A DNA stretch of 63,918 nucleotides, the filler included, from Rhabdomonas costata (taxonomy: Eukaryota): assembly GCA_019059605.1 (NCBI GenBank). It is 55 parts of 55 records of this genome, joined end to end, with 100 filler letters (N's around TTAATTAATTAA, not from the genome) between each part and the next. Parts side by side here need not be neighbours in the genome. Positions count along the whole stretch, not along the records: positions 3,495 to 4,559 come from JAHMHO010030527.1; positions 4,660 to 5,724 come from JAHMHO010030528.1; 53 more parts are not named here. The stretch is one strand, 5' to 3'. Under the pieces are notes generated by a model. The model saw nothing but the letters and a program-made list of their open reading frames with translations. It searched no databases and was not told where the DNA came from. A program made the translations under genes and the position numbers. Shown in pieces: positions 3,495 to 49,955 of the stretch; the stretch's first letter is position 1; every line of letters begins with the position of its first letter.

Positions 3495-4204
3495 TAGAGA
3501 GGGGACTCGATATAAGATCATTCTGAGAAAGTGAGCTAAGGAACCTTGTGCATAAAGCAGTTAGTATCGGAGTTCAAAACTCCGACACTAACTGCTTTTT
3601 CTCCGGAGGGTTCTGGGGATTTTAACACACAATGGTAAGTTTTACCCTCTGCAACAGGAATCACAGCAATTTAAGCAGATGTTGATGATAGCTGTGTTCG
3701 ACAAATACTTTCAGATTGCCACCTGCTTGGGAATGAATGTGCTATGGCGGACAGGTCTCCTGGCAAGTTTTATCAGCTTGACATGGAAATGGCCTTCGTT
3801 ACTCAGGAGGATATTTTCAGTATAGTAGAGCCGATTTTGTACAGACGTTTCCGTAAATTCTCAAACTACAAAATTTCTCCTCTGCCATTTCACAACATTT
3901 CCTATGAGGAAGCCATGCTCCTCTATAGCACAGACAATCCAGATCTACGGAATGTAGATGTCGTGTTCATTTTATGCGATGCAGAAGAAAAGGTCCGTTT
4001 CCTTAGAGGTAGACTTCGGGAGTATCTTGGTGTGCAGCTTGGGTTGCTAAGAATACGCTTGAACTTTTTTGGGTCATAGAGTTTCATATGCATGAGTGTA
4101 ACAGTGCTACCGGCAAGCGGCATTTTAGTTAAAATTCATTTCCAATGCCAAAAAGTGGTGTAGAGGCGATGGAGCGTGCGCGGACTCTGGAAGAGATTCT
4201 TGCG
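3495..4204 (+). pseudogene. aspS: Degraded bacterial-type (alphaproteobacterial-like) aspartyl-tRNA synthetase
   Basis: Collinear motifs across frameshifts: [24 protein letters not shown]...[85 protein letters not shown]. No introns; most of the GAD insertion domain is deleted. Confidence 0.9.
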
Positions 4205-5071
4205 CGACGCATGGATACCTAAACGACGTCATCCTGCCTCCCTGGCACCCGTGCAAGGTGTTCCAAGCCCTGCACTTGGCATGGCAATTCCCAATGATCT
4301 CTCCTCCACGGCCCTGTACACCCAGTGCGTCAACCATGCCCTGGGCTTCGGAGAGAAGCATGCGCCTTCCACCTCCGGCAACGGGGGTGTGAAGACCGTT
4401 CTGAAACCCCTAATACACTCTAGAGGTACCCCTCCCTCCCCTTTACTTCCACAGATTTCCCACTTATCCCGTCTCCAGCCCCAACCCGCCTCAACTACGC
4501 CCCACACTACCAGCACTCTCCCTTCCTCCGTTCTCAATGCACTCCATCACATCCAACCCNNNNNNNNNNNNNNNNNNNNNNNNNNNNNNNNNNNNNNNNN
4601 NNNTTAATTAATTAANNNNNNNNNNNNNNNNNNNNNNNNNNNNNNNNNNNNNNNNNNNNCCTTGATTGTGTATTGCATATTACCGATATTACGTAAGCCT
4701 GGGTTATGCCTGAAAGCTCATTGTTAAGCAAATGCACTGTCGGTCCCACTTAGAGCCTTTTATTTTTTGACACTAGGACACTATTCTCACCAAACCTACC
4801 TCCCCTTAACACAATTTTATTTGCAAGCATACTGTAAACGTCCCTTTGCCTTTGGTAGACGGGCGGGTGGTGGATATGGTTGTTTGCAGAAGGTTGCCCG
4901 TTAAATCGCGGTCTTACGCGCCAGGGAGGTTTCTAATTGTTGACCACGGATGCGGGAGACTTGGTGAAAAGCCAGCCGGAAGAATACCTCCAAACGAAAT
5001 TTTCCTTGTGCAATAAATGGGGTACGTACCTTAGCGAGTCTTAACGGTTGTGCGCAAACCTCTCTCCTCAG

Positions 5072-48891: not shown

Positions 48892-49955
48892 GTTGTGTGG
48901 GGTTACTTTCCGATCTTCCAGATTCTCCCCCCCTCAGCCATTGATGTTCCTTCCGCTGTGGATTGGGAACACGCAGGTAAGAGCGCTGTTAGATTCCCGA
49001 GCCTCAGATTCGTTTACAAGTCAAGAAGTGGTGCAGAGATTCCGTTTGCAGAAGTACCCGTTGCAGCAAAGGCTCACGGTGAGAGTAGCGAATGGAGAAG
49101 GACTCCACGTGACCCATTTTGTGCAAATTGTCGGGAAATTAGATAGAATGCCGATTAAATTGTTCTTGAGAGTGATTCAGACGGCAATTACAGTGGTTCT
49201 GGGCTATCCGTTTTTGACAAGGCTACAGCCACAGATAGATTGGAAGCGCAGATGTGTCAATGTTTGGAGAGGCTAAAGGATTTATGACATTCAGGCGCTT
49301 CCAGCAGTTGATTCTTTCATAATTACGTGCCCAATTACAGGGATGATGGTAGCCGAGCCGGAGGAAGTTGTTCCAGAGCTTCCACATATCTCTCAAGTAA
49401 GGAAAGGGTGGGTTTTGTGCCACCCTGGTTCCAGAGTAGCAGTGGAGGAGGGGAGCAAAGCCCCAAATGACCCAGGCGTCAACACGGCTGGATATCGTTT
49501 GGTTGCAGAAAAAAGCGAGCTCATGGTGTTGACCTTTCCACAGTGTGCGGAGTCTCTTCCAGAGTTGAATCCAGAGGGTGCTATTTCCACAGTGTAGGTG
49601 GAAGAGGTCACTCCAACTAAGCAGGACCAGCGACCTATAGCTAGGGCTCAGGAGCCTAAATGGATGGTCAAAAGGAAGTTGCGAGATTCGCCCAGGAAGG
49701 AAGTAGAGAAGTTAATTAAGGAAATGGAACACAGTATTTGTGGCCCCCCTTGTGCGGTGTTACCAACACCCCCAGAGATCGAGAAGTTAAACCAAGAATT
49801 TGCACACACCTTTCCAGCGTCAGTTCCGGGAGGGTTACCCCCTTCGAGGAGGACGGACCACAGGATTGATTTGAAGCCGGACAGTAAGGTACCAGCCCAG
49901 AGGCTGTACCGAATGTCCCCGGCGGAAGATGAAGAATTGCGGAAGCAACTGAAGA
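48892..49955 (+). mobile_element. Decayed Ty3/gypsy LTR retrotransposon pol fragment, copy 2 (same family as 2330-3394)
   Basis: ALLDSRASDSF (DSG changed to DSR), VVLGYPFLTRLQPQIDW, GLPPSRRTDHRIDL...PAQRLYRMSPAEDEELRKQLK; internal stops. Confidence 0.92.

Follow-up and report, generated by a model that had tools for sequence, protein, structure and literature searches.

A decayed aspS fragment of probable Rickettsiales origin fused to a host repeat in the genome assembly of a euglenid-type protist

Introduction

Nuclear transfers of Wolbachia DNA occur in insects and nematodes. The closest precedent for the locus described here comes from Volvox carteri, where the nucleus of symbiont-free strains contains incomplete rickettsial 16S, murB, ddlB and ftsQ sequences amid multicopy host DNA and a transposon (PMC4324946). 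These PCR-confirmed pieces are 88-92% identical to the known symbiont of some strains and are interpreted as genes that an endosymbiont, since lost, passed to its host. The same article cites 16S pseudogenes in Trichonympha and murA in Trichoplax. Among euglenozoan hosts, symbiont-bearing diplonemids harbor alphaproteobacterial symbionts, for which no recent gene transfer to the host is reported (bioRxiv 10.64898/2026.01.29.702485). The words "pseudogene" and "insertions" do not occur in the main text of this preprint, and dead fragments may thus not have been sought. Rickettsiales are described in two euglenids, Petalomonas sphagnophila and Eutreptiella (PMC8061765, section 6.4), and the main text of a study on a heterotrophic euglenid (PMC8219788) does not contain the terms Rickettsiales, rickettsia or Holosporales. 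Genome-level knowledge of symbioses between euglenids and bacteria is poor, and in the literature we searched, mostly without subscription papers, we found no description of a euglenid whose nucleus carries relics of Rickettsiales origin.

Here, we analyze a contig from the Rhabdomonas costata assembly GCA_019059605.1, in which a broken bacterial aspartyl-tRNA synthetase gene (aspS) runs into a host repeat. Its arrangement resembles that in Volvox, with a broken rickettsial housekeeping gene among host repeats. It differs in that the host is of euglenid type, that the locus is known from sequence alone and that its best relative is far more distant (closest DNA match 71% over 290 nt, with 400 Rickettsiales-order genomes scored and G323 left out). 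With the Wolbachia, Trichonympha and Trichoplax cases, the contig would share the presence of symbiont DNA in a host nucleus, for the most part in a decayed state and close to repeats. The donors in those cases are known and often still present, whereas none was found in the assembly for our locus. The diplonemids again combine a euglenozoan host with an alphaproteobacterial link, but no recent transfer is reported there. We assign a probability of roughly 0.78 to the reading that the contig represents a non-functional nuclear insertion, in which an aspS stretch from a Rickettsiaceae-like member of the Rickettsiales, released by a lysed intracellular bacterium, became joined to a host repeat in a euglenid-type nucleus and decayed without selection.

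Results

The window, that is the whole stretch of 63,918 nucleotides analyzed here, is made of 55 unrelated contigs of ~1,065 nt each, which are separated by N/TTAATTAATTAA spacers, and neighbors in the window are thus not neighbors in the genome. Positions 3495-4559 correspond to one entire contig (C30527, 1,065 nt) of an assembly that comprises 97 Mb and is split into 104,289 pieces. The main organism of this assembly has GT-AG introns and a GC content of about 52%, which is also the median of the window contigs, and its expanded 18S on contig C1946 stretches model positions 4-1116 over 1,842 nt. An 18S expansion of such size is typical of euglenids. The assembly is incomplete, and contaminant DNA is also present. 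Contig C63185 carries a 16S, which we take to be of actinobacterial type. In addition to the expanded 18S of euglenid type on C1946, there is an 18S of ordinary length on contig C25815, which we take to be of land-plant type. A piece of an RNA polymerase large subunit on contig C29018 is intronless, AT-rich and by eye of giant-virus type.

Several other contigs in the window carry reading frames of their own. The contig at 1-1064 (29% GC) contains two frames, a basic one of 88 residues and one of 110 residues that resembles a viral cysteine protease by eye, with nothing significant for these frames in Pfam, NCBIfam and PDB. A 251-residue open frame rich in Asn, Thr and Cys lies on the contig at 32596-33659 (23% GC) and matched no family at the usual thresholds. 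Retrotransposon-type aspartyl protease frames were found with Pfam on two separate contigs, at 2364-2684 and 48893-49273.

Beginning at the first base of the contig, homology to bacterial AspRS continues in several frames as far as ~4204. These 710 nt contain no intron and correspond to ~residues 132-296 and 392-476 of a Rickettsiales protein that is 598 residues long (Table 1). The class II catalytic core around motif 2 is detected by Pfam tRNA-synt_2 (PF00152) in two frames (E = 5.8e-13 and 1.5e-7), and the whole-protein model TIGR00459 scores 53.1 and 36.7 bits, below the level of functional members (curated cut-off 373.85). As the initial annotation had noted, about 700 nt of AT-richer aspS (43.2% GC in 3495-4204 versus 58.0% GC, with 41% C, in 4205-4559) are interrupted by frameshifts and stops; we count at least four frameshifts, near 3529, 3625, 3732 and 4050, and one premature stop. 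The large GAD-domain deletion it described is also present, PDLRN running directly, in frame, to VDVVF of VDVVFILCD. The motifs that it had named fared less well, since the assembly differs from them, reading FS*NSFPMPKSG and another variant 12-residue stretch. Homology stops near residue 476 and motif 3 is absent, and consequently no enzyme can be made; a single open frame containing both the GAD domain and motif 3, as expected for a functional aspartyl-tRNA synthetase, was not found. GC3 of the aspS piece is 49%, versus 18-37% in the closest loci.

Table 1. Features of contig C30527 in window coordinates
Feature	Position	Strand	Basis
Decayed aspS, ~residues 132-162 of Rickettsiales AspRS	3495..3569	+	Nucleotide alignment to loci L091 and L094; six-frame translation
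Inverted repeat, 21-nt arms, 3-nt loop	3554..3598	.	Longest in 100 shuffles, 11 nt
aspS catalytic-domain piece, ~residues 163-296, EFxTP to PDLRN, two frameshifts	3570..3953	+	
In-frame deletion (~95 codons) of the greater part of the GAD insertion domain	3953..3954	+	
aspS piece, ~residues 392-476, frameshift near 4050, TAA at 4130-4132	3954..4204	+	
Junction between aspS and host repeat	4202..4207	.	2-3 nt assignable to either side
Decayed host-repeat copy, cut by contig end	4204..4559	+	7 other contigs, 74-95%; alignments

The lesions in the aspS stretch are of different kinds. Its first part is shortened, truncated by the contig end and partly overwritten by the left arm of a hairpin. The N-terminal anticodon-binding domain and the left junction of the insertion would both lie beyond this end of the contig. 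The hairpin arm is an inverted copy of the aspS codons at 3578-3598, which replaces the original codons and probably marks a local template switch. The hairpin is spanned by record 17 of sequencing run X3, whose variant at 3586 pairs the sole mismatch. The GAD deletion is spanned without a joint by record 9 of run X2 (3693-4222), and its two ends resemble each other in relatives (DLRN and NLKN/NLQN), which would fit a join at short homology. We rejected a natural loss of the GAD domain on the donor side: the deletion is present in none of the references compared, and we found no paper on such a loss. The last aspS piece terminates in a Rickettsiales-type segment at 4160-4204.

The sequence beyond the junction had been described as an abrupt switch near 4205 to C-rich, unrelated DNA. 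The switch and the C-richness hold, but the flank is not unrelated, being a copy of a host repeat. In three of the other copies (L082, L085 and L087), the repeat continues upstream of the junction point, and the junction thus falls inside the repeat. In a further copy, at about 1489-1698 of contig C1704 (L084), the repeat begins ~9 nt upstream of the point at which aspS is joined, and a boundary at this place in the repeat may thus be recurrent. The same contig carries a glycerol-3-phosphate dehydrogenase-like exon (E = 9e-4), preceded by AG and followed by GT, which ties the repeat to spliced host genes. Better copies of the repeat encode a CX2CX3HX4C knuckle; Pfam assigned no family, and Atlas gave a zf-CCHC lead (0.85), which we regard only as a lead towards a gag-like family.

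We next consider the donor of the aspS stretch. The motifs ADRSPG and HNPFSMPQGG are common to alphaproteobacteria, some Clostridia and PVC bacteria, and with such a spread do not fix the donor. The segment between the HNPFSMPQGG and QYD motifs falls into an 18-residue and a 14-residue class. The last 15 residues of the aspS piece fit the 18-residue class ungapped, with up to 9/15 identical and the last three residues of the segment removed by the junction; their mean score is 32.8 against this class (44 sequences), and the 14-residue class (215 sequences) gives 10.4, rising to 15.4 when a gap is allowed. The initial annotation had likened the segment after the motif to the Rickettsia type. 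The 18-residue class is found in 32/56 Rickettsiales-order loci, which is not a frequency, as these loci were chosen by similarity to the query. It occurs in 0/21 Holosporales-order genomes (locus L015 counted among them), 0/74 other named loci and 0/30 further tlc-bearing alphaproteobacteria, or 0/125 outside the Rickettsiales in total. When summed scores were ranked, the top 26 of 311 AspRS sequences all belonged to the 18-residue class, including ones that NCBI names Ca. Tisiphia, Rickettsia and Orientia. These Rickettsiaceae enzymes and our aspS piece have in common a motif 2 region of the ADRSPGEFYQLD type and, following HNPFSMPQGG, the segment of the 18-residue class, and the enzymes give the best summed scores, at no more than 59% identity over 203 columns; unlike them, the aspS piece has lost most of its GAD domain and its motif 3, and contains frameshifts and a stop.

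The insertion may instead be real but derive from another bacterium (Holosporales-like, Clostridia or PVC), or from ingested or environmental DNA, which we consider unlikely. Many Clostridia are found among the best 80 loci by similarity, and our phylogenies leave such placements unrejected. In trees that exclude its first 11 residues, the aspS piece sits on a long branch and in no starred clade, and a topology grouping it with six Holosporales exceeds the quick tree by 6.9 log units (p-AU 0.617). When the piece is placed on a fixed backbone with all columns, about 99% of the weight falls on Rickettsiales branches, with no group rejected outright (best Holosporales AU 0.70), and placement without the last 15 columns resolves no donor group. 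The closest relatives of a tlc relic in the same assembly (see below) also differ from those of aspS. Against these points stand the 18-residue segment, confined to our Rickettsiales sample and matched by the contig free of gaps, and the uniform class of the top summed scores. With moderate certainty, the length of this one segment and the best scores thus point to Rickettsiales rather than Holosporales. The initial annotation had proposed a Rickettsiales/Holosporales-like symbiont; segment length favors the first of these orders and argues against the second, which the likelihood tests do not reject.

A junction between bacterial and host sequence may also form during amplification or assembly, when a co-sampled bacterium is fused to a host repeat. 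The stretch is present in contigs from three runs (X1, X2 and X3), which all come from one sample and look amplified; no RNA dataset was listed with it. The initial annotation had named a junction carried by a single amplicon as a possible artifact. The junction at 4204 is crossed by records in all three runs. By a 31-letter rule it is bridged by X3 record 18 (4155-4391), 1/22 among the records listed, and records 4 and 5 of X1 as well as 9 and 10 of X2 stop 18 nt beyond it. Junction-crossing records start at no fewer than three different points (3693, 4073 and 4155), indicating several template molecules. GT-only loose ends, which we take to resemble the adaptor of a PCR-based amplification kit, occur in all three runs (at 3614, 4073, 4155 and 4507-4555), and none of the listed X1-X3 records shows a loose end, joint or adaptor at 4204. 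The records separate into two forms with a divergence of about 4-5%, and each form continues across the junction. They differ at 7 listed sites in 4070-4222, each with a depth of 14-31 in two runs, depth here being no measure of copy number. The two forms are alleles or duplicates, and the assembly sequence seems to be a mosaic of them. Two diverged forms that cross the junction from different starts make a single amplification chimera unlikely, and the junction thus predates library preparation, in what is one sample and not independent material. The adaptor-like ends in every run, the use of one sample and the contaminant bacterial contigs in the assembly would fit a chimera, but the heavily decayed aspS part contrasts with these contaminants, whose frames are intact at 35-37% GC. 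We therefore regard an artifact as quite improbable.

The differences between the forms look neutral. The aspS part has 23 listed substitutions, and all but one fall within aligned codons; these 22 comprise 18 non-synonymous and 4 synonymous changes, as expected without selection (18/22 versus a neutral expectation of 76%; P = 2e-8 under omega 0.1). Each form carries lesions of its own. In the 12-residue motif stretch, the second form has a Glu, seen in run X2. At nine sites the variant, and not the assembly, agrees with the consensus of Rickettsiales, and at four sites the reverse is true; some of the low-depth variants may be errors.

A living but degenerating symbiont could carry aspS as a pseudogene in its own genome. 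We searched the assembly for such a bacterium, bearing in mind that it is incomplete and that the absence of donor genes is thus a result of searches rather than proof. A TIGR00459 search recovered no intact bacterial aspS and no missing 3' part; its 4 matches of 5 candidates comprise C30527 and two host exons only, the latter by their motifs presumably of AsnRS and LysRS type. This outcome, for a check that had been suggested at the outset, is consistent with a relic. Bacterial rpoC was not found in the assembly (three weak matches are of host or virus type by eye), nor were virB4 or, with a stricter first screen, a Rickettsiales-type 16S, with one bacterial 16S present. When the 20 kb around aspS of genome G316 were used as a query, only C30527 was returned and none of the neighboring donor genes. 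aspS is an essential gene. Further divergent pieces of bacterial DNA in the assembly, with a GC content near 45%, and one tlc frame open for 220 codons would be compatible with a resident symbiont, but the lack of an intact aspS, of rpoC, virB4 and a Rickettsiales-type 16S in our searches, together with a flank formed by a host repeat, renders this explanation very improbable. Least probable of all is an origin as a processed pseudogene, with an organellar AspRS encoded by the host as its parent: the stretch is intronless as expected of a retrocopy and a parent gene could be missed in an incomplete assembly, but it scores 31 bits with human mitochondrial AspRS, our sole organellar comparator, versus up to 105 bits with Rickettsiales AspRS, genome G323 again left out, its ADRSPG has one extra residue relative to the Thermus and Mycobacterium chains compared, and the two other exons in the TIGR00459 search are of other types by their motifs, so that the organellar grouping considered by the initial annotation is not what we find.

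Further searches returned intact bacterial genes. A 20-kb ribosomal-protein region matched two contigs, one intact (35% GC) and one with a 150-nt rpsC piece, and a Mur-ligase search found one intact murE-type contig. Contigs C64182, C44350 and C53989 have intact bacterial frames at 35-37% GC, encoding rplN-rplX, an NTT-like membrane protein and a Mur ligase, respectively, and are probably from one low-level contaminant.

Other bacterial pieces look like relics in host-like DNA, namely tlc (ATP/ADP translocase, on three of the four contigs matched by this family), ddl and rpsC. Their GC content is 45-51%, versus 35-37% in the three intact bacterial contigs. On C22644 (1-1232, minus strand), 220 open tlc codons run into a decayed reverse transcriptase, whose RVT_1 pieces are weak (E = 0.1-0.2). 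A second tlc is present as two broken copies, which are 95-96% alike and lie on C4147 (1133-2273), with host-like DNA upstream, and on C40640 (1-835), where a broken ddl follows downstream; a tlc-ddl adjacency was absent from 30 Rickettsiales ddl loci with 1.5-kb flanks. On C4520 (1432-1584), ~150 nt of bacterial rpsC are found in otherwise non-coding DNA. For the best preserved piece, the tlc of C22644, the best relative among 1.84 billion representatives is 46% identical, and no close relative was found in the metagenome contigs searched. In a FastTree phylogeny it groups with three proteins that fall outside the tlc sequences sampled from Rickettsiales and Holosporales. The closest genomes, G533 and G691, have a poorly matching AspRS of the 14-residue class. 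A single donor for all relics, which we also considered, is weakened by this tree and by the AspRS class of these two genomes. A second, tlc-bearing donor thus appears likely from the sequence comparisons, and the additional relics support the process rather than the same donor.

Discussion

The aspS stretch of C30527 is most likely another case of a known process, a rickettsial relic in host DNA, here in a euglenid-type protist. Its origin may be envisaged as follows. An intracellular bacterium, which we infer once resided inside an ancestor of the host, would have lysed and released DNA, and a stretch containing aspS most likely entered a chromosome at a break, through end joining that made use of short homologies. 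Decay without selection would then have produced the large deletion, the template-switch hairpin, the frameshifts and the stop, leaving a relic that now exists in two forms, which differ by about 4-5% and are either alleles or duplicates. The order of events may have been that aspS landed in the repeat, or, with equal fit, that a 5'-truncated repeat copy landed in a longer bacterial insertion. The nuclear insertion of symbiont DNA put forward by the initial annotation is thus supported by the junction to a host repeat, by the two forms and by the decay; a chromosomal position and a former residency of the donor are inferred.

The aspS piece itself is without function, and that the process has already been described in Volvox and in animals limits the surprise. 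If our reading is true, Rickettsiales DNA reaches a euglenid nucleus and there records a symbiont that is no longer detected. More tentatively, and at slightly less than even odds in our judgment, the nucleus may preserve scattered fossils of two or more intracellular alphaproteobacteria, now lost and without close sequenced relatives, one from the Rickettsiales (aspS) and one from a tlc-bearing lineage, with pieces joined to repeats or retrotransposons and partly duplicated. Should this hold, dead insertions could reveal past euglenozoan symbioses that gene-based surveys have missed.
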